Shown: positions 7,030 to 57,359 of the stretch, one piece after another
How positions within the stretch are numbered: the stretch's first letter is position 1
Layout of the letters: each line of letters starts with the position of its first letter
Source: Mytilus edulis
Taxonomy: Eukaryota
Direction: 5' to 3'
DNA length: 64,000 bases
Assembly: GCF_963676685.1 (NCBI RefSeq)
Contig: NC_092355.1
Span: 14,074,001 to 14,138,000, forward strand
Made by a program: the position numbers and the translations under genes
The notes under the pieces: model-generated
The model's input: only the letters and a program-made list of their open reading frames with translations
Told to the model about the DNA's origin: nothing
Databases searched by the model: none

Positions 7030-10000
7030 ATGGATTGTTGTGGGCCAAATTCAATACGTATAAAAAGTAAGTTATTAACCGATCTAATTACACATTCTAA
7101 AAGCTAAATATTGGGCGGCAGTCAGAGTATACATTTACCATGTTTACACTAAAATTACGTATGCAAAATATATAGTAGACGATTTAAATAACCCAAGTTT
7201 TAAAAGAATGAATTAATACTTTATTCTCTTAAAACAATTGTTACAGAGAACATATACATATTAACAATATACAAACTTATATAGCATGTGTGAATTAAAT
7301 ATACATATATAAAGTGATACTAAGAAGTTCTAACCTGGAGGAACGACCTTCTCTTGGACGTTCTTAATAAATTTACATAGTTTTTCTAATACAATTACAT
7401 TGTTGGAAGCAAATAGCTGTTCAAACTTATAAATGTTAACATTTTCGTGACAAAAAAGAGGACGCAGATTTATTCTTCTTGCCCCTTTTTGTCACGAAAA
7501 GAGGATGTGAATGGGGTATAAAGAATAGATAATATTGGACATAATGTGCATAATAAAAGGCAAACAATGCAGCACGAGGAACAATCAAACAATGCAGCAC
7601 GAGGAACAATCGACAAAAAAGGAAGATGAAATATACTCGATAGAGAAAAAAATTATGAAAGCATAAAGCACAAAAAATGGTCTTATTAATTAAAGAATAC
7701 AGAAATAAAAGACTACAACCAGACCCGTTTATGATGTATTCAGTTATGTTGACTAATATCAAGTTTTAATTTATTTTAAAAAGTATCACATATGAGCTTG
7801 AAGATTATATATATATTGTATAAATGTATAATTCAAAAATATAACACATTTTTAATGTGCTAAACGATCAATATTTCTTATGATGAAACGGAAATGATTC
7901 AATTTTCCAAAAAAACACATACATGTAATATTCGGTCGAAAATACAGTCCAAATATAAATACCCTCTATACATACAACAACAAAAACAGTAAAACCAGCT
8001 GAGGAGCGAAATATATGCCCTTCCCTTTGCGAATAAAAATTGTTGCAAGAATAAAACTGAACATTTAGAGTATTTTATATCAGAATTGAGTCAACTAATT
8101 CTTTAAAAAAATACTGCACAAGGAGTCGTAAAGGAGATTGCATTAACCAATCCATCAAATCTTTCTTCCATAATTACCACATAGAATATTGCTAACAGTA
8201 AATTTAACATTGATAAAGTCACAATCCCGTAGGAAATATTAAAGCTTTCAAGATATTTAAATATCATACGGGATTATGACTTTAGTCAGGAATATGACAG
8301 TTGTTGTGCATTCGTTCGATGTGTTTTATATTCCTTTGATTTTGCCTTTGATTAGGGACTTTCCGTTTTGAATTTTCCTCGGATTTCAGTATTTTTGTGA
8401 TTTTACTTTTTGCTAACCAAGATAGATATCTATGTATAATACTTTATTATAGAGCCAACAGGACGAGTAGTGAGAACTGGTTACCTAAAGATTTATGAAG
8501 GTATGTTTCACAATCTAAAGTACTATGTGTAATTTTATTGTTCGTACCCCAAAATGAAAATAACGTTATTGGTTGAATTTTCATTGTTTAGCACGTCTTT
8601 AACAAATCACGACGTTTTGGTGTACACTTTTGAAATATTACCCAGGATGCATTATATTCTGAAACGGCGAATTAAAGGTTAATATATATTTGTTTAAGTA
8701 AATAGATGAAATTGGGAATTTCACGTAATTACTAAAATTTAGGAATTACATGTAATTTCTGTTGAACTTAGTTAATACAAGTAATTCCTAAAACTGCCCA
8801 GTTATTACTAGTAATTACTAATTTGTGAATGGATTTTTGCACCTATTTACTAAGTGATAAAACATATGCAAAATTATACCAAAATTTGTGACAAAGCCCA
8901 TTTACTGTTTTGTGACCTTAAGTTAATAGGTCTTTTAAAAGTAAAACTATTTTTAACCCAAAGGGAAGCCTTCCCGTTCTAGTCCTTTAACTTCTTGTTT
9001 GGTTTTTTAAATTATGTCTAAAACTTTGAAACAGAACTATCAAGTAAGTAAATAGCTGTGAAATTACTAAAAAAATCAGTTATTACCTGTACTTACTGAA
9101 ACAATGAGTTATATATGTAATCATCTTAAATTAAATTCGACTAGTGATTACAGGTATTTACTAAATTGTCTAGAAATTACGTATAATTCCTAATTTCACC
9201 TATTTACTGTAACATATATATAGTTTTACTTAATCATATGAAAAGACAAGTTCTTCTTCATTCAGTGCATTTACTAACATCATTTAATTACATTAGATGT
9301 AAAAAAAAATATATATTCCGTTAATTCGATTGGTTGATCACAATCGAAAGGCACTCTCATTTCATAGTTTATGTCTACACGTGCTGCCCGTGACAACATT
9401 TAAAGCAAAAAGCATACAGCTCATATGAAAAGCTTCATATATAACTTTCACTATTAGAGTTGTGGTATCAGCATTCAATTACAAGCATTCAATTCTTCTA
9501 TGTAATTAGAATGCATTATGTTTTAATATAATATGTAGATTATCTATATTTATATTTTATAAGTCAGAGAACTAAGTCAGAGGATAAACTTATCTTAATT
9601 GCGAAAAAAAATATGGTCAATAGAAAAAAGGACAAACAACAAAAGAACTTGTCGCTACAAAAAGTTAGGCATTTCTTGCTTCCCGCGCGATATCTGTCCT
9701 AATACAACCAAAATTGTATGAATGAGTTGTACTGAAAGAAATTGAATATTTTACATATTAGATATTGTATTAAACGTGAAAGAGTGTCTCGAGTATCTTT
9801 AATATAAAAGAATAAAAAGGCACATATATTTTGATTTTCCTATACTAGATGCCACTGCTGGTGGACGTTTCGTCCCCGAGGGTATCACCAGCCCAGTAGT
9901 CAACACTTCGGTGTTGACATGAATATCAATAATGTGGTAATTTTATAAATTTCCTGTTTACAAAACTTTGAATTTTTGGAAAAACTAAGGATTTTCTTAT

Positions 10001-13000
10001 CCCAGGCATAGATTACCTTAGCATTATTTGGCACAACTTTTTGGAATTTTGGATCCTAATGCTTTTCAACTTTTTACTTGTTTGGCTTTATAAATATTTT
10101 GATATGAGCGTCATTGATGAGTCTTATGTAGACGAAACGCGCGTCTGGCGTACTAAATTATAATCCTGGTACCTTTGATAACTATACTGTATCCCAACAT
10201 ACTTTGTTACCTGACGATTCTGATTAGTCTTGAATGTACAACGTTCAAAGTAACTGTAAAAATGGAAATACCACTATTTAGATAAGACGTCCGAACAGCT
10301 TTTTTTTATTTACCTTCACTGGAAAATCGCACAGCCAACGAAATGTTAGAATTTTAAAAATGTATAGGAACTTATACAGAATTAAATTAAAGAGTATTGA
10401 GAACCAAACATTCGAAAAAGCTTCGTACAGTTAATTAATCTTTGTTAGAAGAAAAATATTAGGATCTAATCATGATAGTGATAGAAAAGGGACATTTCAA
10501 ATATAACATAATACAAATATACATTGTTTAGACGCTCCTCTAACATATAACCTGTTTTAACTCTATACAGAAGGATGTTTTTTCATCGGATGGAAGTCCC
10601 GTTACTTTGTGTTATATGATGACAGTAGTCTCTTATGGTACCAGGACCGCGACTATTACCACCACAAAGGTGGTATTAAACTCAAGGTAATCGTTTTAAT
10701 ATTACTCATATAGCACGTTTTGTCAGAATAACTTTTGAACCTTTAAATAAATATTGTTAAAAATGTATCAAAAAGGCCATATGTTTCCTCCTTTGAATTG
10801 TTTTATATTGTAATTTCGGAGACTTTTATAGCTGACTATGCGGTATTGGCTTTGCTCATTGTTGAAGGCCGTACGGTCACCTATATGTGTTAATTTCTGT
10901 GTCATTTGGTCTCTTGTGGAGAGTTTTCTCATTGGCAATCATACAACATCTTCTTTTTTTATATATATCAAATAACGTTCTTCAGATCAAACTTTAATTG
11001 TTGTATATCAAAATTTGTTCATCGTAAATGGGAAACTCAAGCTCCTGTCGAAAAAAAATGGTTGGACTCTAGAAGAGTAAACTAAACTAATACCTAATTC
11101 GGTCTGTCAAACTCTGCAAATACATTCTTTGCCATCAAGGATGAAAATGGATTTTAGTTCAGTAATTCGAATAAAATAAATCTTTCATTCGTTCAGTATG
11201 ACTGCTTTTTAATGTGTTTGTTTCTATTACTATATATATTTCTAGTATATTGAGGACTTGATAGGAGATCTGTGTTGATATATTATATCCCTTTTATTCT
11301 GTATTCTTCATTTTGTTGTCCGAAATTGTCTATTTGAACATTGTCTTATATTCTTGAATCATTTGTATTTACAAATTGTTTTCAGACCATCATATTCCTT
11401 ACTTCATAATCATGATATTATACCTCTTGATAAGCAATAATTTGTAATAGCCTTTAATCATTTTATTTAGATGGTAGCTAATTTCATGGCAGTTGGACCA
11501 ATGTGTCTTCATACAGCTGGATTTCCTCAACTCCCAAAAGGAAGACAGGTTATACATTTAATGGGTGTTCCAGACATCTTTAAAAAGGGAACAAAAAAAG
11601 AATATATTAAAATGAACTGGATTTTGTTTACTGCAGGTGATGAGGACATGATGTAAGTAACCTATAGTTGAACATATTTTGTATTTGTTTTGTTGCCCGA
11701 TTACGATATTAGAAGGCGGTTTTATTTGGTTCATTCATTCGTTTTCTTGTATTTGTTAGGTTAAGGTTTTGTTCGAATTTACTTTACCTTTAACTGAAAC
11801 TACCTACATTTGCAAGATGTGATATTTTGAAATATATGCAGAATTAAAGCATTTCAACGTTGGGACTGAGAAATTATGTTGTAAAAACGTTCTAGACGAT
11901 ATAGATAAAGGCAGATGTGGTGTGAGTGCCAATGAGACAACTCTCCATCCAAATAACAATTTAAAAAAGTAAACCATTATAGGTTAAAGTACGGCCTTCA
12001 ACACGATATACATGAATATCATAACGTCGTTTGTATGTCACTTAATCATCGGTTTTAATATTATGCAACAGTAGTGTTTCGATGTTTAAATCTTATCAAT
12101 TGACTAAGGAGACAAAAACTGAGGGAAACTGAATGAAAGTAAAAGAAATAAAATTCAGACGACTTTTCTAGTATCTATTCAATTATAAACATGAGGTCAC
12201 TGCGCTAAGCCGAAGTCAAATCTTATTGATCAACCAATTTAAAATTGCAACTGTAAATTGGTTGAAGTGCCTAATTCAGTCTATTTCCCTTTAAACTCTA
12301 TTGCAGTTTGTAAAAGGACCACTACCCTATAAGAAAAGTGTATATACTATGAAGATTACCGCATCAGATGCGCATCTCGATGTAGTCTATTCTTTTTTCT
12401 CTTTTATTGCTAGGGCTTGGTTGGAGGCTATCAAACCAACGGTAGGTAAAACTAAATATTACACCTAAGATTAATATACCATTATATATGTATCTCACGA
12501 GTTGAGCGTGTTGTTTTATCGCAACATTCACGACTGCAAATGTAAACCTAAATTTACAACAATGCGTAGGAACTTCTCGGGAAGCTATGCTGAATCTAAA
12601 TTTTGTTATGTCACATAACGTAGACCATGATATGTCAAATTTGTGCCACTTAATACGCTGTAATACGCAAATGTGCCACTTCGATGTGTCGATATTTCTG
12701 ACGAGGGGGCGATGGTAATTTACGAGTTACGTCCCTTTGTTTGACACTCTCATGAACAAACTATTATTATATTAAGCACCATATGCTGTTATTTACATGT
12801 GGATATTATTAAAATAATTTGATTAAATATATTTTGATACTTAAGACATGAGCAAAAAATTAGAGAAACACATTTTATCACTTTTCAGAACTCAGTCTCA
12901 GTGAAATATAGGCACTATGTGCAATAATATTATTATTCCAAGAGTTAATTTTATATTTATATTTTGTATTTTTACTGTTGTAATTAAAATATTTCAACAT

Positions 13001-16000
13001 AGAAATAAAATTTCAACTAAATTAATACAAGGAGTAGCCAAATTATTCATGAATAATTGATCATGACAGGATAAAAATGATTAAAAACAGGAATTCCTTT
13101 TTTCATTACTAATACCTGGTTCTACCTTTTTCATTTAAACTTAAAAGAGATCATAATGAAAGTGTTCTGAATGTAAATGAAAGGAAATTAGTTAGCAATC
13201 CTTGTATGAATAAAGTGAAACTAAATAACAATAAAGTGTGTCTCAATGACTCCATACAAGTTCTAAATGAATGGGCTCATATTATAAAAAAGGCACTAAA
13301 CCAATAAATAAATGGTTCTAATCATGAACTTGAAAATAAATAAGAACCAAAAATAGTCAGTCTAACATTTTTCTTCTTCTATTTAAAAACATAATAATAA
13401 CTATGCATTTTTATATATAACAGTATTTCAGAGCAGTTTCTGAGTGCTAAGTCAACAATTATGCTTTAGATCACAAGTCATAAGTAAGTCACACTTTATG
13501 CACTCAAAAAAATAAATTACTTGAATTTATTTAAAAGAAGTATTGATTTTACTGAAATCAAGTAAAAAACAAGTAAAAATGTTTGTCACAAAATGAGTAA
13601 TTGCTAGTAATGCCAAGTAATTATAAGCTATTACCTAGTAATTAAATGTAAGTAATTTTCCTATGTATCTTAAGTAATTCTTTTAATAAATACTAAGTAT
13701 TTTTTTTTCATATATAATAATTATTTTTTTTATTATAGTAAGTAATTCATTTAATACACATTAAGTATTTCTTATAATTATTATAAGAAGTAATTCTTTT
13801 ATTAAAAGTAAGTAATACTTTTATTAAAAGTAAGTAATTCTTTTATTAAAAGTAAGTTATTCTTTAATCAAAAGTAAGTACTAATTCTTTTATTAAAAGT
13901 AAGTAATTCTTTATTAAAAGTAAGTAATTCTTTTATTAAAAGTAAGTAATTCTTTTATTAAAAGTAAGTAATTCTTTTAATATACATTAAGTCTTTAATT
14001 GTAATTCTTTTAATATTTATTGAGTATTTCTTTTACTACTCTAAGTATTTCGTGTACCAGTTTTTTTACTTATGGCAAGTAATTTCTGGAAATTAAATTA
14101 CTTGAAACAGTAAATTTATTTGTAGGCTTTGAGTAATTCTTTTAGATATAAATAGTATATATAAATATTATATCTACAGATTAATAAAAAAAAAAATCCA
14201 CATTGTTTTATCATAAATGCATATAATTTGAAAAAAGTAACCTACCTTTTTAAAGAATTATCATATACTATATCATTTGTTATAATCCATTTCTATTCTT
14301 GTTTGTTGTAAGTTAACCTGGGCTACCTCCCCATCACACAAAAATAAAATATTACTAAGTATTTATATTTTACTTGAATTAAGTATTCTTTTTAGTACTC
14401 ATCACTAGGAATTACTTACCAATTACTCACTATTACTAGCAATTACTTATATTTTACTAGATATGAATAGTTACTTGAAACATGTAATTGTTTTACTGAA
14501 AAAGTGTGTCTATCAAAAAAAATAATTAAATTAAAACGAATACTAATAATAATTTTACTCACTTGAGTAAATGAATTACTTAATCCATATTTAGGTAATG
14601 ACTTACCGGTACTGTTTTTAGTAGAAAGAAATAACTTAGATTAAGTCATATATTCAAGAACTACACATTTTTTTTTAATTTACTTATTATCTATTTTTAA
14701 TATAATTTTTATAATGTAAAATAACATGACTTAGTGTTACTAAAATTAAAAATTAACTATTTATTATAAATGTACGAAATTGTATAATATTTCCTGTATT
14801 TTTAATAAGTAGTTATTGATTTGAGACTGAAAAAAATATTCGGACAATCAGAATTAAGGTTTCATTTGACTTTGGTAAGCTATTTTTGAAAATTGTCTGG
14901 AGCTCATTCAGTTTTGAATTTGAACAAAAGTTAACAGAGTTTGTTGAAATACTTACACGAGTTACACACATGAAAGGAAAGGAGAACCTTACAAAAAGGA
15001 CACTTTATGGGTTTTCATGTTTCTGGCTACTCTTTGTGTACGAATTCAATTAAATGAACAAAGAGTTGCTGGGGAGGTAGCCCATGTTAACTTACAACAA
15101 ACAAGAGAAATGGATTATAATAAAGGATATAGTATATGATCATTCTTTAAAAAGGTATGTTACTATTTCAAATTATATGCATTTATAATAAAACAGTGCA
15201 GAATTTTTATTTTAATCTATAAATATATTATAAATATATATATAATTTATGTGTAAAAGAAATACTCAATAAATATTAAAAGAATTACTTACTTTTATTA
15301 ATACAAATAGTCAATATGTATTAAAAGAATTACTTACTATCATTAAAAGAAATACTTAATATGTATTAAAAGAATTATTTACTTTAATGAAAAGAAATAC
15401 TTACTTTTATAAAAAGAATTACTTACTATAATTAAAAGAAATACTTACTATAATTAAAAGAAACAGTTAAGGTGTATTAAATGAATTACTTACTATAATT
15501 AAAAGAAATACTTAAAGTGTATTAAATGAATTACTTACTATAATAAAAAGAATTACTAAGTATATAGGAAAGAAATTACTTAAGTATTCATTAAAAGAAT
15601 GACTTAAGATACATTGAAAAATTACTTAAATTTAATTACTAGGTAATTACTTACAATTACTTGGCATTATTAGGAATTACTCATTTTTTGACAAACATTT
15701 TTACTTGGTTTTTTACTTAATTTGAGTAAATTAAATACTTGTTTTAAGTAAATTCAAGTAATTATTTTTTTTGAGTGCAGCAACTCTTCGAGTTACATTT
15801 TCATTTAATTGAATTAGTGCACAAAGAGTAGCTAGACACATAAATACCCACAAAGTGTCTTTTTTGTAAGGTTCTCCTTTCCTTTCATGCTTGTCAACGT
15901 GAAATTATTTCAACAAACTCAGTTTACTTTTTGTTCAATTTCAAATCTGAATGAGTTCCAGTCAATTTTCAAAAATAGCTTACCAAAGTCAAATGAAACC

Positions 16001-19000
16001 TTAATTCTGATTGGTTCAATATTTTATCAGTCTCAAATCATAAACTTCTTATTAAATACAGGAAATATGAATTTAAAATAAATAATTGATTGTGGATTTT
16101 AGTAAGACTAAGTCATGTAAGTTTACATATAAAAATTATATCAAAAATTAATAATGATAATTTGAAGATATTTTGATATGAAAATAATTTTAGTAATGAC
16201 TAGTAATTCTGATACTAAGTAATTCCAATCAAATTTATTTTAAGCATTTCAAAGTATTGTCTAAAAACAGGCTATAATTTCAATTTGGAATTATTTTTAA
16301 TTATGGAATTCGCATAATTTCTTGTGCTTGAAATTTTTAATGAATTCCGTGTTTATTCTGCTATATATTTTTTTTAAGCATTCCATTACACTAGTACTTT
16401 CCATACAATGTATGTTGTATAGATAGTGTTGTGCGCGGCACAGAACATGCATTCTATTGAAAATATGTTATCTTCTTTGTAATAGAAAGTGTTGTGCGCC
16501 GCACAGAACATTGAAATACAGAATAAACATGGAATTTATAAAAAAAATCTATAATTATAGACAATTCCAAGTTGAGATAATAGCCTGTTTAAAGAAAATT
16601 GCTATAATAGTTATCCAAATGTATGCAATTTTCAGACTGTGAAACCTACATATGTTGAAATCGTTAAATTATGGAGTCAAATTTCATAGGAATCATTTAT
16701 TATTATATAAAACAAGCCTTATGCAAGCAAACAACATTATGTAGTGCCTAAGACTACTTAGTAATAACAAGTTTTATATCAAAGTTATCAGAAGTAATTC
16801 CAGTAACTTTCATACTGCATTTTAGTATAAATTAAAAAAAAATAGGCGTAGTTCATTAGTATATAACTTAATCTACGTAATGTGTTTTACTACAAACAGT
16901 AAGTTATTACTTAAATAAGGACTAAGTAATTCATTTACTCAAGTGAGTAAAATCATTATTAGTATTTGTTTTAATTTAAGTAATTTTTTTAATAGACACA
17001 CATTTTCAGTAAAACAATTACTTGTTTCAAGTAACTATTTTCATATCTAGTAAAACATAAGTAATTGCTAGTAATAGTGAGTAATTGGTAAGTAATTCCT
17101 AGTAATGAGTAATAAAAATGAATACTTAATTTAGGTTAAATATAATTACTTAGTTATTTGTGTGTGTGTGTGTGTGTGTCATTATGAACAGGTTTTGAAT
17201 AAGAGTAATTAAAATGCTACTCTGAAAGAGATTGTTTTAAGTTCAAATTTAAGACAATACTTTTTCATTTACTTTTGCAGGATTCCTTCATCACAATTTT
17301 TTTTATAATAGTTTTTAATTTAAGGTTTTACAAAGACAGTATATGATTTCCTTACCTTGTTTTAGTTTAGTCAACATTTTCACTGACTTCAAGAGAATAA
17401 TCAATACAGTCAAATATTCACAGCTGAACTCTCCATTGGTTTTTCAAAATACATACTGAATGTGTGTATCATAATCTTTCAATCAGTTTAATTGAAGTCT
17501 GGAGCTGGCATGTCAGTTAACTGCTAGTAGTCTGTTGTTATTTATGTATTATTGTCATTTTGTTTATTTTATTTGGTTACATTTTCTGACATCAGACTCG
17601 GACTTCTCTTGAATTGAATTTTAAATGTGCGTATTGTTATGCATTTACTTTTCTACATTGGCTAGAGGTATAGGGGGAGGGTTGAGATCTCATAAACATG
17701 TTTAACCCCGCCGCATTTTTGCGCCTGTCCCAAGTCAGGAGCCTCTAGCCTTTGTTAGTCTTGTATTTTTTTAATTTTAGTTTCTTGTGTACAATTCGGA
17801 AATTAGTATGGCGTTCATTATCACTGAACTAGTATATATTTGTTTAGGGGCCAGCTGAAGGACGCCTCCGGGTGCGGGAATGGCTCGCTACATTGATCAT
17901 GTTGATGACCTGTTAGTGACTTTCTGCTGTTGTTTTTTCTATGGTCGGGTTGTTGTCTCTTTGACACATTCCCTATTTCCATTCTCAATTTTATACATTG
18001 TGTTCTTATGCAAGTGACATCAATATGTGTAAGTCCAAAACACTACAATGTCAAAACATGTCTTTCTTTTGGAATTTAGTTCGAACGTGGTTTCCTACGG
18101 GGTGATAGAACGTTAGACTTGATTTTGAGATACGTAATATTTAATATTTGTTTATACTATATATAATCTTTGTTTATCTGTGAAAAAAGAAGACAAAATA
18201 ACAGACAATTTCGCATAACTTCTATGAATGACGATCAACGGTGTTACGTAATTGTTAAAAAACGGCCAATTTAACATTTTAAGTATCATTTACTTTTTTT
18301 TTAAATATGTACCATGCTTTTAAAAAAAATCGAAATAAAAATATTTCTGACCCTAATGGCAAGTAAGAAACAGAAAAAAGAAAAAAAATTAAATTGGCGT
18401 CAATTTTTTTTCCCGCGAAATTGACGCATTTTCTGAATGGCGGGTTTTAATATCAGTACCATTGATGTCTTAAGAAAGTAGCAACAACGGTCGTTTCTAA
18501 GGGCTTGCTTTCCGACTGAATGATTTGACATTTCATATTGATTTTGTTTAATTAAAGCTACCACCACCTCCTGCAAGACCTGAGCGTCCTCCTCATTCAA
18601 TCAATAGTCATTCGGCTGGACCATCTCCACCTACAAATGTTGTGCAATGTAAGTATTAAAAATAAAAATAGAAGACACCAGAAAGATCAGGTATATGAAC
18701 GCAATTAAGCATTACTATTTAAAGATACTTTTATGCGTTCTCAAATGATAAAAATAAAATAAGAAATTCTTTATTTAACGAAAGAATGTACAACAACTGA
18801 TTCTAAGGACGTAAAAGAAGGACGATAGATTTCAAAGGAGAAAATCTCAATCTAATCCTAGTTGAAAACAGCACTGCCATGACAGACAGTACTAAAAACA
18901 ACACAGAAAACTAGACTGTCCAACAGAAACCCACTAAATCAACGGCTTGATATAACACTTTTTAAGGAACTGATCGTTCATGCTATAAAGAACAGAGGAT

Positions 19001-20888
19001 CTTTTTATTTTGATAAATAATTTGATTTTTAAATGTATTTGCTTTTGAATGGAAGATGTATATTTATTATAAATATATTCATTTGACGTGATAATAATAT
19101 GCCTACAACGATGTCAAGTGAATTGTCGTAGACATTTTCATGAAAAATGAAGTTGTCGTACTATTTTCTAATGCCTGTAGATCTGGAAATGACATTTTGT
19201 ATAATGGCGACTTACAGATAATTGAATTGTCTAGTTTTGTCGTGAATATTACAGTTGATTTCAATTCCTTCGATCGATATAGTCAAGCGGTTGATTTTGT
19301 CACGTTTTTTTGACTTCCTTTGTTTTTGAATTTAGAAGATTTCGGTATAATTTTTTTAATTGTTTTCTGTCACTTTTACAGAGGTTTCCCAGGAATTGTC
19401 TTTTTGATATAACGACTTTTCCTATTGAACAAACACATACATTGTTCAGTTTTGTCCATACTTAAAATGTGCTGCCACCTAATAATCATGTACACACAAT
19501 GTGGATAGTAAATTTCCCTGATAGAAATATACATTTGATCATTACTGCAGGCAGGGTCATTCTCCACGCGTCCACACAATATTTTGTGAAATTAACCGGT
19601 AGTTATTCAGTTGTTTTATCAATATCTGCGTGATAAAACTATTGCTAAGTTCAATCACTTACCAGGTTAGAAAGTCAGTTCTTTTTTTGCTGTTATTTTA
19701 AATTTCTTGACTCCAAATCTCGTAAAGAATTATCCAGAAGCTAGTGAACATTAGGTTGTTCTCATTTACAATTAGGGAGAAATAAGAACGTCAACTGTTC
19801 TTAAAAGATTTTTTTTTCATGTTATTTAAAGTGCAAAAAGTTTGTTACTGTATTAAACAATTATAAGAAAAGAAACCAACGACCCATTCACCCCCTCTAG
19901 ATCATGAGTGGGTGTCTCGGGAGCTTTTGTGTCAAATTACTGCTTTCTTAAAATCGTAGTAAAGTACTCACCTATTCATGGTTCATGATTTATTTCAGAC
20001 CAACCACAAGGTCAATTACCTGGGAATAGGGAGGAACGGAGCAACACAGACTTTACAACCGGTTAGTAATTGTCTTACGAATAAACCAATACTTTGTGTA
20101 TCCTATGTTTGAAGTTCGAGTAAGTTTTACATAAAACTTATTTTTGCCAGAATTAGATGATTAGGTTATAGTATCGCCTTTTTTTTCTAATGATCTCTAA
20201 ATATTAGTTTCCTTATGAATGCAAGCAAACATTTTTGAGTTTTTGATATAAAATTAGAATAAAGTCAATTCAAAAACAATTTTCGTCTTCAAACCACGAC
20301 TAAAGCAACCTTGAACACACAACAAAGTTGACCTTGTAACACTTGAAGTTTACCTTGTATCACTTTACGAATAACATTAAAATAAAAAGTTGACTTTCAA
20401 ACGTTTAGGGGCTCAAAACGACACTAACAATATAACCCAAATAATCAGTACTTCATTGAAATGTATAGGAGGCAAGTTTAGATGTCATATTGTACTTTTT
20501 AGGTGTAATCCTTGGAGGAGCCATAGGTTATGGTCTTGGTGGTTATGGACCAGGTTGGGGCTGGGGATGGGGATGGGGATGGGGACCAACTCCCTACGGT
20601 GGGTTTTGGGGAAGTTGGAGTGACTTTGGTGACGGTGGAAGCGTGGACATCGATCATATTGACTATGATTGTGGTAATGACAATGATTACGGATATGATA
20701 CACACGATATTGGTGACTTCGAGGCTGGAAATGATGGCGCTGGAGGAGACTTTGGTGATAGTGGCGGTGGTGGTGGCGGCTGTGGCGGTGGAGATGGTGG
20801 TGGCGATGGTGGAGGTGGTGGGGGAGGGTGTGGTGGCGGGGGTTGTGGCGGTGGTGGGTGTGGTGGTGGGGGTTGTGGTGGCGATTGA
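7030..20888 (+). CDS. PH-domain protein, evectin/PLEKHB-like, paralog 1 (316 aa, Gly-rich tail)
   Basis: Eight GT-AG exons join in frame (951 nt): 7030-7066, 8453-8500, 10571-10686, 11471-11652, 12414-12441, 18558-18648, 19999-20061, 20503-20888. Protein: MDCCGPNSIRIKKPTGRVVRTGYLKIYEEGCFFIGWKSRYFVLYDDSSLLWYQD...KGGIKLKMVANFMAVGPMC...PQLPKGRQVIHLMGV...DEDMMAWLEAIKPTLPPPPARP...DFTTGVILGGAIGYGLGGYGPGWGWGWGWGWG...GGGGCGGD. PH motifs are present (GYL, WKxRYFVL, LLWY, W-x-x-AI helix). The GxxC..P.G insert and D..G.LxG segment resemble evectins. Exon structure is conserved in paralog 2. Confidence 0.9.
7205..7440 (-). mobile_element. 5'-truncated LINE 3' end in the first coding intron
   Basis: Minus strand reads NIYKFEQLFASNNVIVLEKLCKFIKNVQEKVVPPG*, followed by a short UTR and AATAAA. 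Resembles the extreme C-terminus of invertebrate LINE ORF2. Confidence 0.5.
8685..9220. mobile_element. AT-rich MITE with imperfect ~50-bp terminal inverted repeats
   Basis: Left end tgtttaagtaaatagatgaaattgggaatttcacgtaatt matches the reverse complement of the right end tgttacagtaaataggtgaaattaggaattatacgtaatt. Flanked by TA runs, with internal gtaattac subrepeats. Confidence 0.7.
9846..10185 (+). repeat. Interspersed repeat family B (gtatcaccagcccagtagtc...gtagacgaaacgcgcgtctggcgta...ggtacctttgataact)
   Basis: Inverted copies at about 31428-31575, 47900-48215 and 62745-62990. Confidence 0.85.
10780..10960 (-). repeat. Interspersed repeat family C (agatgtggtatgattgccaatgagacaact...accgtacggccttcaaca)
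   Basis: Related copies at about 11910-12005, 48945-49320, 53130-53250 and 53750-53880. Confidence 0.8.
13501..17164. mobile_element. Non-autonomous CACTA/EnSpm-like element (outer copy) in intron 5 of paralog 1
   Basis: Starts CACTCAAAAAA at 13501 and ends ...TTTGTGTG running into a (TG)n tract. It carries ~22-bp subterminal repeats (agtaattcttttattaaaagta) at about 13780-13980 and is interrupted by a second copy. Confidence 0.7.
14335..15777 (-). mobile_element. Second copy of the same CACTA-like element inserted in inverted orientation into the first
   Basis: Ends are CACACAAAAA and TTTTTGAGTG. 14335-15070 is the reverse complement of 15778-17164 (missing about 0.7 kb), and 15071-15777 is the reverse complement of 13501-14334. 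Flanks CAT/CAG match the uninterrupted junction ctacctcccCAGcaactct preserved in the inner copy. Confidence 0.8.
17480..17995 (+). repeat. Interspersed repeat family D (...gtttaggggccagctgaaggacgcctccgggtgcgggaa...ccattctcaatttt)
   Basis: Partial copies at about 24240-24385 (+), 50680-52125 (split by the hAT element), 56420-56700 (+) and 61975-62145 (-). Confidence 0.85.
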
Positions 20889-26152: not shown

Positions 26153-26500
26153 TCAGTTGAACGTAGTAGATCAACCATACTTACAACAGTTCAACGTAGT
26201 ACATGTTTATGAACTATACTATACCACAGTTCAACGTAGTATATCAACCATACTATACAACAGTTCAACGTAGTATATCAACCATACTATACCACAGTTC
26301 AACGTAGTATATCAACCATACTATACAACAGTTCAACGTAGTATATCAACCATACTATACAACAGTTCAACGTAGTATATCAACCATACTATACAACAGT
26401 TCAACGTAGTATATCAACCATACTATACAACAGTTCAACGTAGTATATCAACCATACTATACAACAGTTCAAGGTAGTATAACAACCATACTATACAACA
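26153..26500. repeat. 34-bp minisatellite, about 10 copies
   Basis: Unit cagttcaacgtagtatatcaaccatactatac(a/c)a, head-to-tail with no spacers. Confidence 0.95.
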
Positions 26501-43100: not shown

Positions 43101-46100
43101 CTTTTCGCCTTTGACCTTGACCTTGTATTTTTGTAGCTGCCTTCTCCTCCTGCAAGACCAGAGCACCCTCACCTCACTGAATCAAGTAATGGTGACCAGA
43201 TTAGCTTATACCCAATACGGTGTAAGTATGAATAGTTAAATACGTTACATTAACTACAAATAGAAGTATTTAAAAAATTGAAAGACCGTTCTCGTAATGC
43301 ATGCATAAAAAAATGCATGAATAGCAAATTTACATGACACATCCACAAGACAATGGTAAATACATAATGAATATGTTGGAGTTAGTAGAAGACTGCATGT
43401 ATTCGTTCTCTAATGGCAAGCAAAGTTTCTGACATACAGACGTTAGCTTTTTATGACTACAAACGATTTATGTTATTTAATACATAGTAGATTATCAAGG
43501 GCCTTATACATTGCAAACCCTCAAACATCCCGATTCGACGATTCCAATTCAGATCAAGAGACGATGTAATCACACACGTTAAATTGCCAAATCAATAACA
43601 AATATCATCACAAAAATGATCCAAAGACAATGAAATAGGTTTCAAACAAAATCTTAGTCATTCCTGATGTAGTGTACAAGGTCCATGAGAATCTACTCTT
43701 CATTAATTATCCTAAATCGTTTGCTAACAGTTACTGACATGCCAGGTCTATACCTCAATTAAGCTGATTGAAAGAATCCGTCTTCAAGTATTTATGATTG
43801 ACTATCAGATCGATGTGATTTGTGGCGAAATAAAAATATATGTGAAACCATTTTACTTGTTTGGCTTGTTCTATAATGCTTCTTCTATAAGACCCATCGG
43901 TGACTTTTGTCCGTTGTCTGTTCTTTGATCGGGTTGGAATCTCTTTGACAAATTCTCCTTTATCCTTTTCTGATTTAAATCAGATTTGTTTAACATAAGT
44001 GTATTATATAACAATTTACAGATCAAGTGTGTGCGTTTTGTTCTGTGTTACTCATTTTTTGTGAAGTTGGACTTTTATTTTTTATGAGAAACACTTCTCT
44101 TTCCGATTGTATAACTTTTTCCATACAACAAATATGTATTTCTTTTCACTTCGGTCATCTTGTAACAATTAAGCACTGTGTGCACATTATTGAATAAAGG
44201 CAACAGTAGTATATAAGTGTTCACAAGTCATAAATCGACTACAAAACATCCGGGTTTTCAACTTTTTTTCAGTTTTGAATTAATCTATATAAATTTCAGA
44301 CCAACCTGAATGTCAACATATAAACACTAGAGACGAAACAACCTATTCAGGCATTCAAAGAGGTAAGGTAATATATAAAAATAAAATATAGTAATATGAG
44401 ATGGCCTTTCAATAGATTATAATAGGTGAATGTGTTGTTCATGTTATTCATGACTTAAAACTTTCAATAATTTTGATATCTAAACGAGCTTCGACTTCGT
44501 AATTTATTTTGCTTTTTAAACTTTTTTTCGATTAAATATTGTTGTGATCCTGGTATTATTTATCAGTTTGTTTTAATGTTAAGTCCTAAAACATGATATA
44601 TCACTGCTGGTATTGCTTCATTTATCATATTCTTTACTTCCATTACGATTTATTGCTCTAGAAAGTTTTCGTACCTTACACATGCCGTGTGTAGTATACC
44701 ACCTTCTTTATTTTCATTACGGTGTATTGCTCCAGAAATGTTTCGTACCTTACACATGCCGAGTTCAATATAACACCTTCTTTATTTCCATTACGATGTG
44801 GTTGTATACGGTTCAGGGTAATCTTCTTTCTTTTTTGTGGTTTGTTTTGTATTTGCGACTTTTTGTATTTCTTTTGTTCTTATAACGTGACTCTGTACTT
44901 TAAAAGATCCCGTCAATATGATATTTTCTATTATATGTCATTATGATATATTTCTATTATGAATTACAATATACGTTGAACCACAAACGTCAAAATCATT
45001 CAATCGCGTAGTGGAATTAACTATTTTTGGATTCTTATAAATTCTATATATAACTTTTGGACTAATTTAAATCTCGGTCTATTTCTTAAATTTATTCTTA
45101 CATACTTTTGTTTTTTAACCCTGTATGCTAACATTCCCATGAAAATTTTTAAATTGTTTGTACGCACATTAAACGACAAATTTATGTGACGTATAAAATT
45201 TTCTGACGTCAGACACTCAAATCAATAAATGTGTTCGTAGATAGTAGATGTTTTTGTGTTCTGTTAAATTGTTCCTTTTAAAATTGTTAAACGATGATGA
45301 CTGATGTACCCATATTTTGACTATTTTATTTATTGTGTCTGTTTATTTAACGCATCAATGTAAAAATATCGGAAATTGATGGGACTGTCATTAAAATGAG
45401 AGGGCTAGCGCTACAGAACCAGGTTTAATCCACCATTTTCTACATTTGAAAATGCCTTTACCAAGTCAGGAATATGACAGTTCTTGTCCATTCGTTTTTG
45501 ATGCGTTTTGTTATTTGAATTTGCCATGTGATTATGGACTTTCCCAATTGATCTTCCTCTAAGTTCAGTATTTTTGTGATTTTACTTTTCACTAGTGTAT
45601 GGATATCATTTTCCAATTGTGGAACACCACATACAGTTTTGTATATGTATTCAAACTTATCTCACAATTGTAAAACTTATTTAAACTCATCAATTAAGAT
45701 TATGAAAGGACACGTCTATATAGTATTAACAAAAGGGATAAATTTTAAATAGTCATAAGAAGATGTGATAAGAAAGCCAATGCGACAACTCTTAATCGAA
45801 GTCATAATATGTAAAATTTTACCATTATTATTATCACTTATGAACCACATCGACAAACGACAACCCCTGATCAACAGGTTTCTAAAATCTATATATGTAC
45901 ATGTAAATTTAAAATCTAGGAGTTAATCTTTTTACAAATTATTATCTGAAATATAACAAATATATTTTTTTCAATTAAGGCGAATATACTGTTACCATCG
46001 AAGAGTGACAGCCCATCATCAGCGGTATCGACCTCATACTGGAGTTTATAATCTATTGCTAGATTTTTATCTATTCAAAAAATTAGAATGCAACTCGTAA

Positions 46101-47726
46101 ATATCGTTATAACACGAAACCGCATTTGACATCCGATCAATATATCTGTGTGAAGTTTTCCTGTAATTGCAATGATGAATCATTAATTTTTGAATTAATT
46201 TTTTTAAATCGATATTTTTCCTGATATCTAAAAAAATCTTATATTATCTTTGTTTTTTTTAACATGATATATCACTTCTGGTTTTGCTTCATTTAACATA
46301 TTCTTTACTTCCATTACGATGTATTGCTCCAGAAAGGTTTCGTACCTTACACATGCCGTGTGTAGTATAACACCTTCTTTATTTCCATTACGGTGTATTG
46401 CTTCAGAAATGTTTCGTACCTTACACTTACCGTGTGTTTTATAACACCTTCTTTATTTCCATTACGATGTATTGCTCCAGAAATGTTTCGTATCGTACAC
46501 CTGCCGTGTGTAGTATAACACCTTTTTTACTTACATAACGATGTATTGATCCAGAAATGTTTCGTACCTTACAATGTTGTTTGCAATATAACACTTTTTT
46601 TATTTCCATTACGTTGTATTGCTCCAGAAATTTTTCGTACCTTACACATGCCGAGTTCAATACAACACCTTCTTTATTTCCATTACAATGTATTACCCCA
46701 AAAATGTTACGTACCTTACCAATGTTGTGTCCAATATAACACCTTTTTTATTTCCATTACGTTGTATTGCTCAAGAAATGTTTCGTACCTTACACATGCC
46801 GGGTGCACTATAACACCTTCTTTATTTCCATCAGGATGTATTGCTTTAGAAATGTTTCGTACCTTACCCATGCTGTGTGCAATATAAAGGTAATGTGAGG
46901 CGTGATTTAAAGAGTTTCTGGGCAATAAAAGTATATGGTTTCTAACGATTTCTTGTGCAGAAAGGCACCAAGAAGTAGATTTAGTTAAAGTGTTGCTGAA
47001 AACTATTAATACCTATACCAGATGGTAAAACAGAATGATTCGAAAGAAAATTCTATTATCATTCTTCACAGTACAAAAACAAATCGTTTTTCTAATGAAT
47101 TTGTCCATCAAAAGAACTGAAGTATATCCAATTTATCAAATATAAAGTACATATATATGTACACAGTCTTTACAAACGATGTTGTTTTAATATGCTTTTT
47201 AGGTGTTATACTGGGAGGAGGAGCTTTACCTTATGGTATTGGTGCTTATGGGCCTGGTATGGGATGGAGATGGGGATGGGGATGGGGACCAAATCCCTAT
47301 GGTGGATTTTGGGGAAGTTGGAACGACTTTGGTGACTGCGGAAGTGTGAACATCGATCGCATTGTCGACGATTTGTGTAAACAAAACAACAATTACGGCT
47401 ATGATATAAAAGATATTAGGGAGTTTGAAAGAGTAAACTTTAGTAACACCACTAACGGTGGCGGTGATGGTTGTGGTGGTGATGAATGCTCATGCAATGA
47501 TTGCTTGGATAATTGCTGTAAATGTGATATCTCTGGCGACGATTGCTGTGGAGATAATTGCTGTAAAGATGATTGCTGTTGTGATTGTTGCTTTAAAGAT
47601 GATTTCTGTGGAAAGGATTGCTGTGGAAAGGATTGCTGTGGAGAGGATTGCTGTGGTGATGGAGGCGGAGTTGGTGGTGCAGGTACTGTAGAATACACCG
47701 GCGGAGATTGTGGTTGTGGGTGTTAA
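37158..47726 (+). CDS. PH-domain protein, evectin/PLEKHB-like, paralog 2 (360 aa, Cys/Asp-rich metallothionein-like tail)
   Basis: Eight GT-AG exons join in frame (1083 nt): 37158-37194, 38884-38931, 40185-40300, 41217-41398, 42550-42577, 43137-43221, 44300-44362, 47203-47726. Phases match paralog 1, and exons 1-5 and 7 have identical lengths. Exon 4 is identical at 46 of 60 aa. Protein: MECCDLDPIRIKEPTSRVVKTGYLTIYERGFFVNGWKDRYFKLY...QAWLQAIKPTLPSPPARP...GVILGGGALPYG...CCGKDCCGEDCC...DCGCGC. Confidence 0.9.
37849..37964. mobile_element. Short internally deleted Kolobok-like element
   Basis: TTAA|ggaggctcgagggt ... acccgcgagccccc|TTAC, an imperfect 14-bp TIR. Confidence 0.55.
41878..41998 (+). 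pseudogene. Truncated, frameshifted duplicate of exon 4 within a ~600-bp tandem duplication
   Basis: About 41282-41875 is repeated at about 41878-42495. The copy lacks the acceptor and 5' part of exon 4 and has a 1-nt deletion after PDIFK. Confidence 0.85.
43460..43723. mobile_element. MITE with ~55-bp imperfect TIRs in intron 6 of paralog 2
   Basis: caaacgatttatg...agtagattatcaagggccttataca pairs with tgtacaaggtccatgagaatctact...taaatcgtttg. Confidence 0.6.
46300..46885. repeat. 74-bp minisatellite, about 8 copies (about 2 more at 44625-44780)
   Basis: Unit ataacaccttctttatttccattacgatgtattgctccagaaatgtttcgtaccttacacatgccgtgtgtagt; period 46441 to 46515. Confidence 0.9.
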
Positions 47727-50700
47727 GATTTTGAATTAAAGTCGTGTTTTATCAACTGTGAGATAAAAGTTGTAATATAGAATATTGGACAAAATGTAAT
47801 AGAATATGTCCTTTGTATGTATGATTACAAAATTGATTTGAACATTAGAAATGTTACTGTATCATGTGTATGATAATCTATTTTTCTTATCTTGTCTGTA
47901 GGTATCAAGGGTACCAGATTTGTAATTTTATACGCCAGTCGCGCGTTTCGTCTAAATAAGATACATCAGTGACCCTCAGATTGAAAAAGTTATAAAGCCA
48001 AACATGTACAAAGTTCAAGAGCATTGAAAACAAAAATTTCAAATAGTTGTCCAAACGACTGAGGTAATCTTACTTGGATAAGAAAATCCTTAGTATTTCG
48101 AAACATTCATACGTTTGTAAACAAGAAAATTATAAAATGACCACATAATTAATATATCCATGTCAACACCGAAGTGCTGACAACTGGACTGGTGATACCT
48201 TCGGGGACGAAACATCTATTTTATGTTTCTCTTATCAGCTTTCAAATTGAAGACAACTATGCAACAAACTCTTTAGTCGTCAGTATCAAAGTGAATTACT
48301 CATTCAATTTTAGCAGATGAGAGATCTAAAACTTAAGTATTTGTATAAATCAAAAATACACGTTGTTTTAATCAAGTGTATATGTAATCTATCATACACA
48401 CCTTCTTTATTTATCTGTGATGGAATGATTATATGTATTGTCTTCTTTTTGTGCATGTTAAGTATGTACTTAGGTGAAATTTGAAAACAAATCCAGAAAT
48501 TAAAACTACAAGCGGAAAGAGCATTAGTTTAGGAACAACATAAGCTAAAAATATTGATAGGTCATCATGGTCATGGAGATCCTTTTTGAGATATTTCAGA
48601 TTTAAGAAATGACGGGAAAACTTTAAAGGCTGACACGGACTTTTACCTTACATTTGCATTGGCACTATTTTTTATATGGCTATCAATTGAGACGTGTGCT
48701 TTCATTATTTGCCAGCTTATTACATTCTCAAAAGAAACTTGGTCGAACATCTCCGTGGCATTTTTTTCGAGTTGATTTTAGCTTACCACACTACCAAACC
48801 ATTACCTAAAATTTAATATAAAAAAAATCTACGGTGTGAAGGTTTTTTTTTAAAATGTATTATTTATTATTAATTATTGACTCCCAAATCATGACTTCAA
48901 TGTTTTAAAACTCAATTAACATGTATAAAAGATGTGAGGAATAAAAGATGTGGTATGAGTGCCAATGAAACAACTGACCATCCGAGTCATAATTTGTAAA
49001 AGTAAACCATTATAAGTCATATATAAAAAAAAAAAGAAGCTGTGGAAGGATTGCCAATGACACAAATCTCAACAATTGACCAAATGGCACAGAAATTAAC
49101 AACTATAGGTCACCGTACGGCCTTCAACAATAAGAAAAGCTCATACCGAATAGTCAGCTATAAAATGTCTCGAAATGACAAATGAAGAACAATTTAAATG
49201 AGATACTAACGATCTAATTTATTTACAAAAACTAAACGAAAAATAAATAAGTAACATATCAACAAACGACAACCATGGAATTACAGGTTTTTGACTTACA
49301 TGACTTGGCGGGGTTAAATATGTGTAGTGGCAATAGGACATATATATAGAAATACAGCCGTTCAAGATTACCATTTAATAACATAATTTATTACTTCCGC
49401 CCACGCCGACGTCATTGACGTTCCGACGTAGACAAACAAAAGTACATTAACATAGGAACGTATTTCGTGCTATATTCACGACAACATGTTAGCGGAATTC
49501 CAACCTTAAACAGTGGTGTAACAGTACAACATAAGAACGAACTATCAAAATCAGTTAAAAAGTGTTCACTCATCAGATAGATACAAATAGAAATACATCT
49601 AACATAAAACACAGAGAGAGGCCTGTTACAGTTATTGCATTTGAATTCTAATTTTGAATGGGTACATCAATATTTCTATTGTATGTTATATAGTTAGCAT
49701 TTTTTGTAAAAACATTGGGAAGGGAGCTGTTAAGCGTCAGATGAATCGATTTCATATCAAAGCACATTTCTGCACACACACAAATAGAAAAAATATTTCA
49801 CATACCATTTTCAGTCGTATACAATGCTAAACGGAATATCAAGTTAAATTGTCCATTTTTGTAAAAATTGATGACCTCTTGATAAAACCCCACATTTCTA
49901 CAGACACACAAATATAACAAAATCATTTCATATACCTTTGTGTTGGACTGTTGACTAAAATCATCGAAGCAAACACATTGGATTGTAGGTATTGCTATTT
50001 TGAAGTATGATTTTTCAAATCCTATTTATAGTGTTTTCTTGCTAAACTTTAAATAATATATCTGCCGTTTATTCTTGTTTGGAAAATATTGATACTTAAA
50101 TATAGTTTTTTTTTAGTTTATAGTCAATTTTGCAATAGCCTGTTATTTTTTCGGTTTGTAAGCTGTTATCATTTTGCTTTCAAATTAATTATCAACAATA
50201 TTATAAAAGAAAAGGAAAAAGGAATTGTCCCATTTGCAATAGTATGAAAAATAACTTGCCAGGTGACATGTATTCTTACACATGTTTACATTGTTTTCTT
50301 TTCAAGAAATTAACCACTTGTTGATCACATGGGCAACCTTTTCCAATAAAAGTTAAATAAAAGTTGCAGGATTACATATTAAGATGAGTTAAACTATTGA
50401 CTTGCAAGTCAATAATACATCAATCATATTTTTTCAAGTTCATGTGACGAAATTCAACTAAAGTGTCATAATAATAGCACTAATTTATTACCATATTCCT
50501 CTAATCTGAATATTGAAACACAAACAAAACATAACGTGTTACTTCGTAGCTGTGTTCCTATATAATTATCATTTTTGTAAGATAAAAGAACAAATGAACA
50601 CAAATAATAAAATTGTTATTTAAAACGAGAATTTTTACATCTTGACGATTTCACTCCACTAGTGCACAATTGTATGTAAAGGCTAGCACCTCATGGTACG

Positions 50701-54812: not shown

Positions 54813-54940
54813 TAGATTATCCTACAATAACATTTCTAATGTTCAAATTATTTTTGTAATCATACAAACATACAAACGACATATTCATTTTTTTTATCAT
54901 TCTATATTAAAATGTTTATCTCACATTTGATAAAACATAA

Positions 54941-57359
54941 CTATACTACAAAATAGCAACACCCACAACCACAATCTCCGCCAGTGTATTCTTCGGTTCC
55001 TGCACCACCAACTCCGCCTCCAGCACCACAACAATCATCTCCACAACAACCTTCATCAGCATCACCACCACAACCATCACCGACACCGTTATTAAAGTTT
55101 CCGCTTTCAAAATCCATAATATCTGTTATATCATAGCCGTATTTGTTGCTTTTTTTACACAAATCGTCGACAATGCGATCGATGTTCACACTGCCACTGT
55201 CACCAAAGTCGTTTAATTTCTGTTCATGGACAAATTCATTACAAACGATCTTTCATGAACTGTGAAGAATGATAAAACAAAACCTTGTTTTGCAATAGAA
55301 TTTTCGTTCGAATCTTTCTGTTTTATCATCCGGTATAGGTATTCAAAGTTTTCAGCAACACTTTAATCAAATCTACTTGTAGGTGCCTTTCTGCACAGAA
55401 AATCGTTAGACATGTACCATATACTTCTAGTACTCAGAAACTCTTTAAATCACGCCTCAAAATACCTTAATATTGAACACGACATGTGTAAGGTACGAAA
55501 CATTTCTAGAGCAATACATCGTCATGGAAGTAACGAATATGTTAAATGAAGCAAAACCAGCAGTGATATATCATGTTCTACGATTTAACATTAAAATAAA
55601 CTCATCATTAAACCTAGCTATATAGTATTACAATAATATGTTATCGAAAAAAAAAATTAAATTAAAATACAGTACGAAGTCGACGTCGAAGCTCCTTTAG
55701 GTATCAAAATTATTAAAAGATTGAAGTCATGAATAAAATGAACAACACTTTTGTTACTCTTTCTATTATTATTAGCTATTGAAAAGACATCTCCCATTAT
55801 TTTATTTGTTACAGATTACCTTACCCCTTCGAATGCCTAAATAGGTTCTTTCGTCTTTTTGCTTTATATGTTGACATTCAGGTTGGTCTGAAATTTATTT
55901 AGATTCATTTAAAATTGAAAACTGGATGTTTTTTTGTTTTTCAGTCGATTTTTGACTTTGAACAACTATATACTACTGTTGCCTTTATTAAGTACTGTAC
56001 ACACAGTGCTGAATTGTAACAAGATGGCCGAAATGAAAAAAACTATCTAAAAGACAAATGTTTCTCATAAAAAAATAAAACTCGAACTTCACAAAAAATT
56101 AGTAATTTAGACAGATCAAAACGCACCCACTTGATCTGTGAATTGTAATAATAAACTTATGTTAAACTTATGTTAAACTAATCCGAATTAGAACAGAGAA
56201 AGGTAAAAGGGAATTTGTCAAAGAGATTACAACCCGAGCAAAGAACAGAAAACGGACAAATATCACCGATGAGTCTTATAAAAGAAGCATTATAGAACAC
56301 GCAAAACAAGTAAAGGGTTTAACATATATTTTTATTCCAAAGGCGGTAGTTTCACCACAAGTCACCTCGATCTGATAGTCAATCATAAATACTTGAAGAC
56401 GGATTTTTTCAATCAGCCTAATTGGGGTAGAGACCTGGTATTTTAATAACTGTTGGTATAGTAGTCTTTTGTTGATTAATATTCTATTGTCATTTTGCTT
56501 CGATTCTTTAGTTATATTTTCTGACATTGGACTTCTTTTAAACTGCGTATTGGTGCGTGTTTCTTTATTCTACATGGTCTAGAGGTATAGGGGAGGTTAC
56601 GATATCACAAAACACGTTAAATCCGCCGCATTTCTGTGCCTGTACCAAGCCAGGAACCTCTGGCCTGTGTGAGTCTTGTTTAATTTTTGATTTTTTTTCA
56701 TTTATATGTTTTACGATTTTGTATAACAAGAGACGATGTAATCAGAAAAGTAAAGTTTCCAAATTATTAAGGAATAGCGTCACAAAAATGATCCAAAGAC
56801 AATGAAATAGGTTTCTAACAAAATCTGAGTCATTCCTGGTGTAACGTACAAGGTCCTTGATAATCTACTCTTTATAAATTATCATAAATCGTTTGTCGTC
56901 ATTAAAAGCTAATGTCTGTAAGTCAGGAACATGGCTTGCTATTAGAGAACGATTACATGCAGTTTTCTACTCATTAAGAATATATTAGCTCCAACATGTT
57001 CATTATGTATTTATAATTGTCTTGTTGATGTGTCATGTACATTTGCTGTACATGATTTTTTTTAATTACGAGAACGGTCTTTTATCTTTTAAAATAATTC
57101 AATTTTTAGTTAAATATTACGTATAAAGTTATTCAGACTTACACCGTACAACATTAACTGTTGGGTATAAGTTAACCTGGTCACCATTACTTGATTCAGG
57201 AGCAATCTCTTGTCTAACCTGGTTACCGTTGTTTAAATACTGAGTATTCTCTGGTGTAACCTGAGTACCATTGCTTTGATGGTGAGGGTCCTCTGGTCTA
57301 ACCTGATTTCCATTAACTGAATGGCGAGGATGCTCTGGTCTTGAAGGAGGACAAGGCAG
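54941..57359 (-). pseudogene. Inverted partial paralog 3 (exons 6-8 only; exon 8 acceptor deleted)
   Basis: Exon 6 at 57359-57143 (open, 217 nt). Exon 7 at 55887-55825 (YQPECQHIKQKDERTYLGIRRG). Exon 8 remnant at about 55213-54941 lacks about 200 bp, including the acceptor, the hydrophobic segment and the GW tract. Introns align to paralog 2, and homology stops at about 57417. Confidence 0.85.

Follow-up and report, generated by a model that had tools for sequence, protein, structure and literature searches.

An array of evectin-like PH-domain genes with repeat-built linkers and tails in the mussel Mytilus edulis

Results

The stretch of Mytilus edulis DNA analysed here, hereafter the window, comprises 64,000 nucleotides (nt) of contig NC_092355.1 (assembly GCF_963676685.1, positions 14,074,001 to 14,138,000). 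It holds two intact genes, A and B, and the remains of a third, C, from a family of evectin-like (PLEKHB-type) proteins in which an N-terminal PH domain is followed by a proline-rich linker, a hydrophobic segment and a low-complexity tail. Spliced models were rebuilt from the sequence. Gene A (7030-20888, plus strand) encodes 316 residues in eight coding exons (7030-7066, 8453-8500, 10571-10686, 11471-11652, 12414-12441, 18558-18648, 19999-20061 and 20503-20888). Its exons 2-5 form the PH domain, scored by Pfam at 31.5 bits, over the cut-off, and its C-terminal tail is made of Gly/Cys repeats. Gene B (37158-47726, plus strand) encodes 360 residues, again in eight coding exons (37158-37194, 38884-38931, 40185-40300, 41217-41398, 42550-42577, 43137-43221, 44300-44362 and 47203-47726). 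All 14 introns of the two genes have GT-AG ends and both frames are open. The products are identical, letter for letter, to the RefSeq Mytilus edulis proteins XP_071141392.1 (A, labelled 'hnRNP A1-like') and XP_071141542.1 (B, labelled 'uncharacterized'). Because of this identity and of the spliced RNA described below, a chance origin of the gene anatomy is excluded, and the two eight-exon paralogues named in a preliminary description of this DNA are confirmed.

Exons 1-5 measure 37, 48, 116, 182 and 28 nt in both A and B. The preliminary description had taken the lengths of the PH exons to be exactly constant, which holds within the window; across the six intact genes of the genome, however, 28 of the 30 exon 1-5 lengths are constant, the exceptions being exon 4 of gene D (179 nt) and exon 1 of gene E (46 nt). 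Exon 6, which encodes the linker, has 91 nt in A, 85 nt in B and 217 nt in relic C, that is 30, 28 and 72 codons plus one base, in agreement with the linker lengths given there. Repeat expansion in linker and tail, also claimed there, is visible as 12-45-nt units in the A tail, a 42-nt unit in C exon 6 and, by repeat scan, a 15-nt tandem unit in 8.1 copies (47541-47661, plus strand) that builds the Asp-Cys-Cys-Gly part of the B tail. The last exon of B encodes 28 cysteines in 173 residues, with eight CC pairs. Cys-Gly-Cys closes both B (47703-47726) and the intact C-type protein; this CxC ending resembles that of prenylated Rab proteins, while A, D, E, F and G end otherwise.

Several other elements lie in or next to the two genes. 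Intron 5 of A contains a large AT-rich inverted repeat (13499-17172; 22-nt tandem unit, arms 82-87% alike), possibly a foldback-type element. A 74-nt satellite occupies 44630-44799 and 46294-46887 in intron 7 of B and is also found in intron 7 of D and partly in relic C. In the stretch before A (6967-7029), the transcript contig begins 5' of the ATG, its first 19 bases unaligned, and there is an acceptor-like site near 6985; an extra non-coding first exon is possible.

The preliminary description had proposed that RNA reads would confirm seven junctions per gene, and they were recovered in part. For gene A, joints 2-3, 3-4 and 6-7 were listed with GT-AG ends, on thin raw-read support (2, 1 and 3 reads in a sample of about 6% of two runs), but joint 7-8 was not among the joints listed, beyond which there are 121 more. 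A 663-nt contig of run X3 covers exons 1, 3, 4 and 6 of A, and the record positions leave room for exons 2, 5 and 7. For gene B, all six junctions examined (2-3 to 7-8) are present in contigs of runs X3 and X8, exon 1 lying outside the stretch compared. At both ends of exon 6 the joints are those of the short form of B; its paralogue D could share some of the others. No B joint was among those listed from raw reads of run X23. The contig runs X2, X3 and X8 are presumed to be of RNA origin, none of the runs listed being recorded as RNA. Within gene A, 9848-10185 is a common interspersed repeat whose end is joined to its start by RNA reads (10185 to 9848; 549 and 611 reads in runs X21 and X22), which suggests tandem or circular forms elsewhere.

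The family was identified mainly by profile and structure. On whole proteins Pfam returned only the general PH model, and on single exons only a weak PH match to exon 3. A profile of 63 family sequences placed PLEKHB2 (evectin-2) first among nine matches (3AJ4, E = 9e-11; 2DHI, 8e-9) and PLEKHB1 (evectin-1) fifth. With the AlphaFold model, Foldseek also ranked 3AJ4 first (E = 1.6e-6), and VIA-align ranked 2DHI first (Z 11.6, root-mean-square deviation 3.9, 116 aligned; next Z 9.9). In the gene A model the predicted local distance difference test score is 86-97 in the PH domain, while linker and tail lie mostly below 50. The mussel profile matches a Saccoglossus protein over the whole span between the PH domain and the hydrophobic motif, both included (probability 99.3). 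First matches in the Atlas (0.90, 0.89 and 0.85, with 161, 166 and 145 shared features) were used as a lead only. The PLEKHB-type, evectin-like assignment, made earlier from the letters of the window, is near certain, and the proteins annotated across the family as 'uncharacterized', 'hnRNP A1-like' or 'PE-PGRS-like' are evectin-like PH proteins.

Relic C lies on the minus strand and was compared with P0003 and P0021, intact C-type proteins of M. galloprovincialis. Its exon 6 (57143-57359, 217 nt, 72 codons of 14-residue repeat units) is open with splice sites and matches P0021 at 68 of 72 residues; exon 7 (55825-55887, 63 nt) has intact AG/GT ends and matches at 17 of 20. Of exon 8, about 205 bases are deleted, comprising the acceptor and the first 40 codons with the hydrophobic segment and GWG run. 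The 3' part (54941-55213) shows 80 matches across the last 86 residues of P0021. The inverted relic of exons 6-8 reported before is therefore real for exons 6 and 7, but exon 8 survives only in its 3' part. The extra tail fragment also reported was found at 54806-54660 (minus strand); it is B-like (87-97% to the B tail) and contains a stop codon. As for the upstream-only copy of the preliminary description, alignment showed that non-coding DNA upstream of B (32883-34408, plus strand) is indeed duplicated at 49621-50493 (plus strand, 70-74%), but the duplicate contains no exon and, from its order and divergence, is likely the upstream end of relic C. These two stretches are the only long matches to this DNA in the genome. 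That 49621-50493 might be a common repeat, or one more gene, was rejected, there being no exon and a single long match, upstream of B. An intact C gene with its first exons off the window was also rejected: no minus-strand exons 1-5 occur in the 80 kb beyond. The order, plus-strand upstream DNA and then inverted exons, points to a former tandem position of C behind B, followed by inversion and partial deletion. A 773-nt contig of run X2 joins exons 3 and 4 to a C-type exon 6, so that an intact C gene is presumably spliced in another animal.

Inside gene B we found a duplication that had not been described. The 3' part of exon 4 and intron 4 occur a second time, with no acceptor, at 41877-42496 (plus strand, 84% to the first copy; the whole duplication spans 41281-42496), and this second copy encodes, by comparison with P0003, a C-type peptide. 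Two paralogues may have fused at 41876/41877 to make B. Distances among the three intron-4 copies are almost equal (57, 49 and 59 of 580 columns; patterns 25/33/23) and leave the fusion unsettled. Record P0039 has the B-internal duplicated exon 4 in complete form.

Searches of the same genome with exon 4 and with exon 8 gave seven matches each, and 25 stretches were examined; these counts being lower bounds, the genome holds at least six intact genes (A, B, D, E, F and G) and one relic. D (437 residues) and E (356 residues) lie within 50 kb outside the window and are identical to XP_071141540.1 and XP_071141546.1; with A, B and C they form a tandem array on the window's contig (the C12 array). 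F and G, of 359 and 379 residues and ten exons each, lie on contig C3. A separate, more distant evectin-like gene of a type known from snails and an octopod is found on contig C5 (163523-175324), with apparent repeats of short exon-4 starts.

The history of the copies was examined on a midpoint-rooted tree of 55 PH domains (17 mussel rows and 38 chosen relatives, with neither vertebrate rows nor the C5 gene). The 17 mussel rows share one side of a branch (98/92), beside an oyster protein and an unnamed protein. The 14 rows of the C12 array form one group (100/99), and B, C and D have a group of their own (100/100). Synonymous divergence is about 1.0 between A and B and about 0.22 between B and D. 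Records of gene A exist for M. coruscus, M. californianus, M. galloprovincialis and M. trossulus; these species also have E records, some of them truncated models. Between records the array varies in its middle: B, D and a broken C in the present sequence, C types in M. galloprovincialis, and a D linker of six repeat units here and of three in another M. edulis record. This comparison was made on protein lists, where a missing protein is not proof of a missing gene. The preliminary description had proposed a lineage-specific birth-and-death family. A mussel-only clade, a relic whose counterpart is intact elsewhere and B/C/D copies that differ between protein records are features of such a family, but A and E are stable across Mytilus. 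It had also held that paralogues already annotated and conserved would speak against it; this is partly so, since four genes (A, B, D and E) already have annotations and two of them (A and E) are conserved across the genus.

Relatives were searched among 1.84 billion representatives, which gave 269 proteins at E 0.001, the best 150 of them listed. Twenty relatives looked up include proteins of abalone, other snails, an octopod, a freshwater mussel, an oyster, chelicerates, a nematode, hemichordates and amphioxus; three carry PLEKHB1-like or PLEKHB2-like names (in Haliotis, Centruroides and Saccoglossus), and insect proteins, including Drosophila CG11000, also occur. The layout of PH domain, proline linker, glycine-hydrophobic motif, GWG run and acidic-glycine end is also found in snails, a ribbon worm, arthropods, nematodes and hemichordates. 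A hand-made pattern recognised the hydrophobic motif in 33 of the 88 full-length-like relatives; between it and the end of the protein lie 71 residues at the median, and at least 60 in 20 of the 33. Since relatives across phyla share layout and tail, the long low-complexity tail is, judged from these sequences, the usual invertebrate form. A tail invented by mussels, the lineage novelty of the preliminary description, was rejected: the same kind of tail follows the same motif in many invertebrate phyla.

Selection was estimated by the Nei-Gojobori ratio of non-synonymous to synonymous rates (dN/dS) for seven gene pairs in four regions; 25 of the 28 values were defined and three were saturated. 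Over the alignable regions, which do not include the distal low-complexity tail, 24 of the 25 were below 1 and no region had a credible value above 1. The PH domain is under purifying selection (0.07-0.18 in six pairs, 0.63 for F-G; 0.15-0.18 for A-B, A-D and B-D). Values were 0.37-0.67 in the linker (0.40-0.48 for the same three pairs) and 0.11-0.38 in the hydrophobic/GWG part (0.23-0.38). Between orthologues the tails are as conserved as the PH domain and the linker is the least conserved part. The A tail is identical at 125 of 128 residues to M. coruscus and at 123 of 130 to M. californianus, the E tail at 157/158, 158/158 and 147/166 between Mytilus species (A and E tails being 89-99% identical across species), and the D tail at 163 of 166 between two M. 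edulis records. Tail differences lie between paralogues and not within them. These results do not bear out the diversifying effector tails of the preliminary description.

Motifs known from evectins were then sought in the six genes. According to excerpts of two sources, evectin-2 has a C-terminal transmembrane domain (PMC8740049, PMC9692390); its PH domain binds phosphatidylserine (PS), K20E abolishing binding in the former, and R11, R18 and K20 are the PS-binding residues named in the latter. Excerpts of a third report that evectin-2 activates Nedd4 ligases and needs its PPPY motif to bind them (PMC5665887). The three residues were placed on the mussel genes through the family-profile alignment, a mapping by sequence. 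The R11 position is Ile in all six genes, a position that holds Arg or Lys in 37 of 57 non-mussel rows; the R18 position is Gly or Glu; at the K20 position A, B, C, D and G have Lys, E has Asn and F has Gln. All six thus lack R11 and R18, two of the three named residues, so that PS binding, which the preliminary description had brought in from evectin-2, cannot be carried over from vertebrates. PPxY is present in both genes on C3 (F and G), in none of the four on C12 (A, B, D and E) and not in the intact C type; it occurs in 35 of 84 full-length-like relatives. A cysteine stands at position 3 in all six genes, and within the first five residues in 24 of the 84 relatives. A hydropathy of 1.6 commonly serves as a guide for a transmembrane helix. 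After the PH domain, the best 19-residue hydropathy in the mussel genes is 0.70-1.34 and is followed by 105-154 residues, unlike an anchor that spans the membrane and ends the protein soon after.

Discussion

We propose that the locus is part of a tandem array of evectin-like genes whose products would act as adaptors on the cytosolic face of membranes, with linkers and tails drifting by repeat slippage. We hold this account to be probable without being firm because its cell biology is what we infer, while the gene-family part is near certain. By analogy with vertebrate evectins, the products likely dock on endosomal or post-Golgi membranes. Contact would be made by the PH domain, by the N-terminal cysteines, whose S-acylation is possible by analogy, and by the weakly hydrophobic Gly/Trp stretch. 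This stretch would probably not span the bilayer, and the acidic Gly/Cys tail would remain cytosolic. F and G may still engage Nedd4-type ligases, and the genes of the window would not. The disordered linkers and tails likely drift by slippage and not by selection for new effectors. As to history, an F/G-like gene may have given rise to the array on the window's contig with loss of PPxY and of two small linker exons. Tandem duplication would then have produced E, A and the B/C/D ancestor, and unequal exchange, inversion and deletions would have broken C here.

Several observations weigh against this proposal. The Foldseek margin is small (1.6e-6, with AKT at 3.0e-6), and single mussel proteins fail to pick evectin among PH structures: P0001 ranks 3AJ4 13th (E 0.22), and with P0013, the gene A protein, 3AJ4 was not among the matches listed. 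The tree of 55 domains contains no vertebrate evectin. With non-basic R11 and R18 positions, the PH ligand may differ, and the mechanism is wholly carried over from vertebrate evectins. The strong conservation of the A and E tails across species indicates constraint and not free drift. The acidic part in B-D gives a dN/dS of 1.24, the sole value above 1, on two synonymous differences, and the distal tail, which could not be aligned, falls outside what dN/dS covers. Finally, with 22-28 cysteines gained in B and D, a new tail function is conceivable.

These cysteines are the starting point of an alternative that we consider unlikely, in which the B/C/D subgroup is specialising: having lost PPxY, it would carry a metal-binding or multiply S-acylated Cys-rich tail and belong to a dispensable stress or defence part of the pan-genome. 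B has 28 cysteines and eight CC pairs and D has 22 and six, whereas the last exons of A, E, F and G encode 2-8 cysteines and lack CC pairs, and only one of 84 relatives has more than seven cysteines after residue 150. Moreover, the combinations of B, C and D differ among the assemblies listed, C, broken here, has intact counterparts in M. galloprovincialis (P0003, P0021) and a spliced form in run X2, the D linker changes from six units to three between M. edulis records, and PMC7653742 reports that dispensable mussel genes come from young, expanded families. However, the cysteines arose by expansion of the 15-nt unit, which slippage alone can yield, and the Cys stretch of the intact C type is much shorter. 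The B last exon has no Pfam family and its tail no usable Atlas match, profiles serving low-complexity sequence poorly; dN/dS shows nothing credible above 1; and absence of a B/C/D copy from a protein list does not equal absence from the genome. A wider version, in which the evectin job is split, one pair keeping PPxY while the window's array dropped it and rebuilt its lipid pocket, and one subgroup's Cys-rich tail serves in some animals only as a membrane-tethered metal sink or acylated scaffold, strikes us as a rather improbable speculation.

A picture close to that of the preliminary description, of true single-pass, PS-reading evectins whose long tail is a luminal or extracellular effector domain, fits the evectin-type fold found by Foldseek and VIA-align, the Lys that A, B, C, D and G have at the K20 position, and a hydrophobic motif conserved across phyla. 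We regard it as very unlikely. The hydropathy peak of 0.70-1.34 lies below the value usual for a transmembrane helix, moving 105-154 residues across the membrane past a tail anchor is unusual, and the models have no signal peptide-like N-terminus. In addition, Ile at the R11 position and Gly or Glu at R18 replace two of the residues that PMC9692390 names, in its excerpts, for binding. That the relic, the tail fragment and the exon-4 duplicate are assembly artefacts of merged haplotypes is hardly credible. Mussel genomes are described in PMC7653742 as highly heterozygous and structurally variable, but the pieces are 10-22% divergent from B (57/580 and 223/995 columns), the region contains no N, and relic C matches a distinct paralogue annotated elsewhere. 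The adaptor array remains our preferred account.

The mussel proteins share with vertebrate evectin-2/PLEKHB2 and evectin-1/PLEKHB1 (3AJ4, 2DHI, 2D9V) the N-terminal PH type, the proline-rich linker and the hydrophobic segment after it, with Lys at the K20 position in most copies and PPxY kept in F and G. They differ by the non-basic R11 and R18 positions, the missing PPxY in the window's genes, the N-terminal cysteines, the number of copies (six) and a hydrophobic segment that is weak and has 105-154 residues behind it, where the vertebrate proteins are described, in excerpts, with a C-terminal transmembrane domain (PMC8740049, PMC9692390). The same whole layout, with a Pro/Gln linker, a G-M-L-x-G-G-type motif, a GW-rich run and an acidic/glycine-rich low-complexity end, is found in invertebrate PLEKHB-like proteins: XP_046564118.1 of Haliotis, XP_067127280.1 of Centruroides, XP_006822260.1 of Saccoglossus, XP_064622326.1 of Lineus, CG11000 of Drosophila and CAI5452926.1 of Caenorhabditis angaria. 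In contrast to them, the mussel copies form their own clade with tandem duplicates, carry Ile at the R11 position, lack PPxY in the C12 array and have, in B and D, tails much richer in cysteine. The dispensable gene families of mussels, as presented by Gerdol et al. 2020 (PMC7653742), show the same young tandem copies, structural breakage and content that differs between assemblies; here, however, A and E look like a stable core and no link to immunity was found.

In the literature searched there was no paper on these mussel genes and nothing on invertebrate evectins. Relative to that literature, the loss of PPxY in the copies on the window's contig and the missing R11 and R18 residues in all six genes are new; that the genes are annotated and that tandem gain and loss are common in mussels is already known. 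Overall the locus is a mussel expansion of a known, widespread invertebrate family and mostly ordinary gene duplication, with turnover between genomes and a Cys-rich tail confined to the young B/C/D subgroup, and the work mainly tidies the annotation of mislabelled or uncharacterized proteins. The remaining interest lies in the loss of PPxY, the loss at the R11 position and the Cys-rich tail that repeats have built in B and D, for which the searches gave no family match. With PPxY and K20 kept or lost and tails Gly-rich or Cys-rich, the locus is a compact natural series for probing what invertebrate evectins bind. If the Cys-rich tail did bind metals and vary by animal, it would bear on how a sentinel species handles metals.

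Other features of the window lie apart from the family. Two open frames (678-1187, minus strand; 2493-3131, plus strand) have no Pfam match and resemble decayed fragments of mobile elements. Further along are a 380-nt near-perfect direct repeat (24947-26038, 99%), a 34-nt satellite (26154-26500) and a 153-nt tandem repeat (58800-59289).

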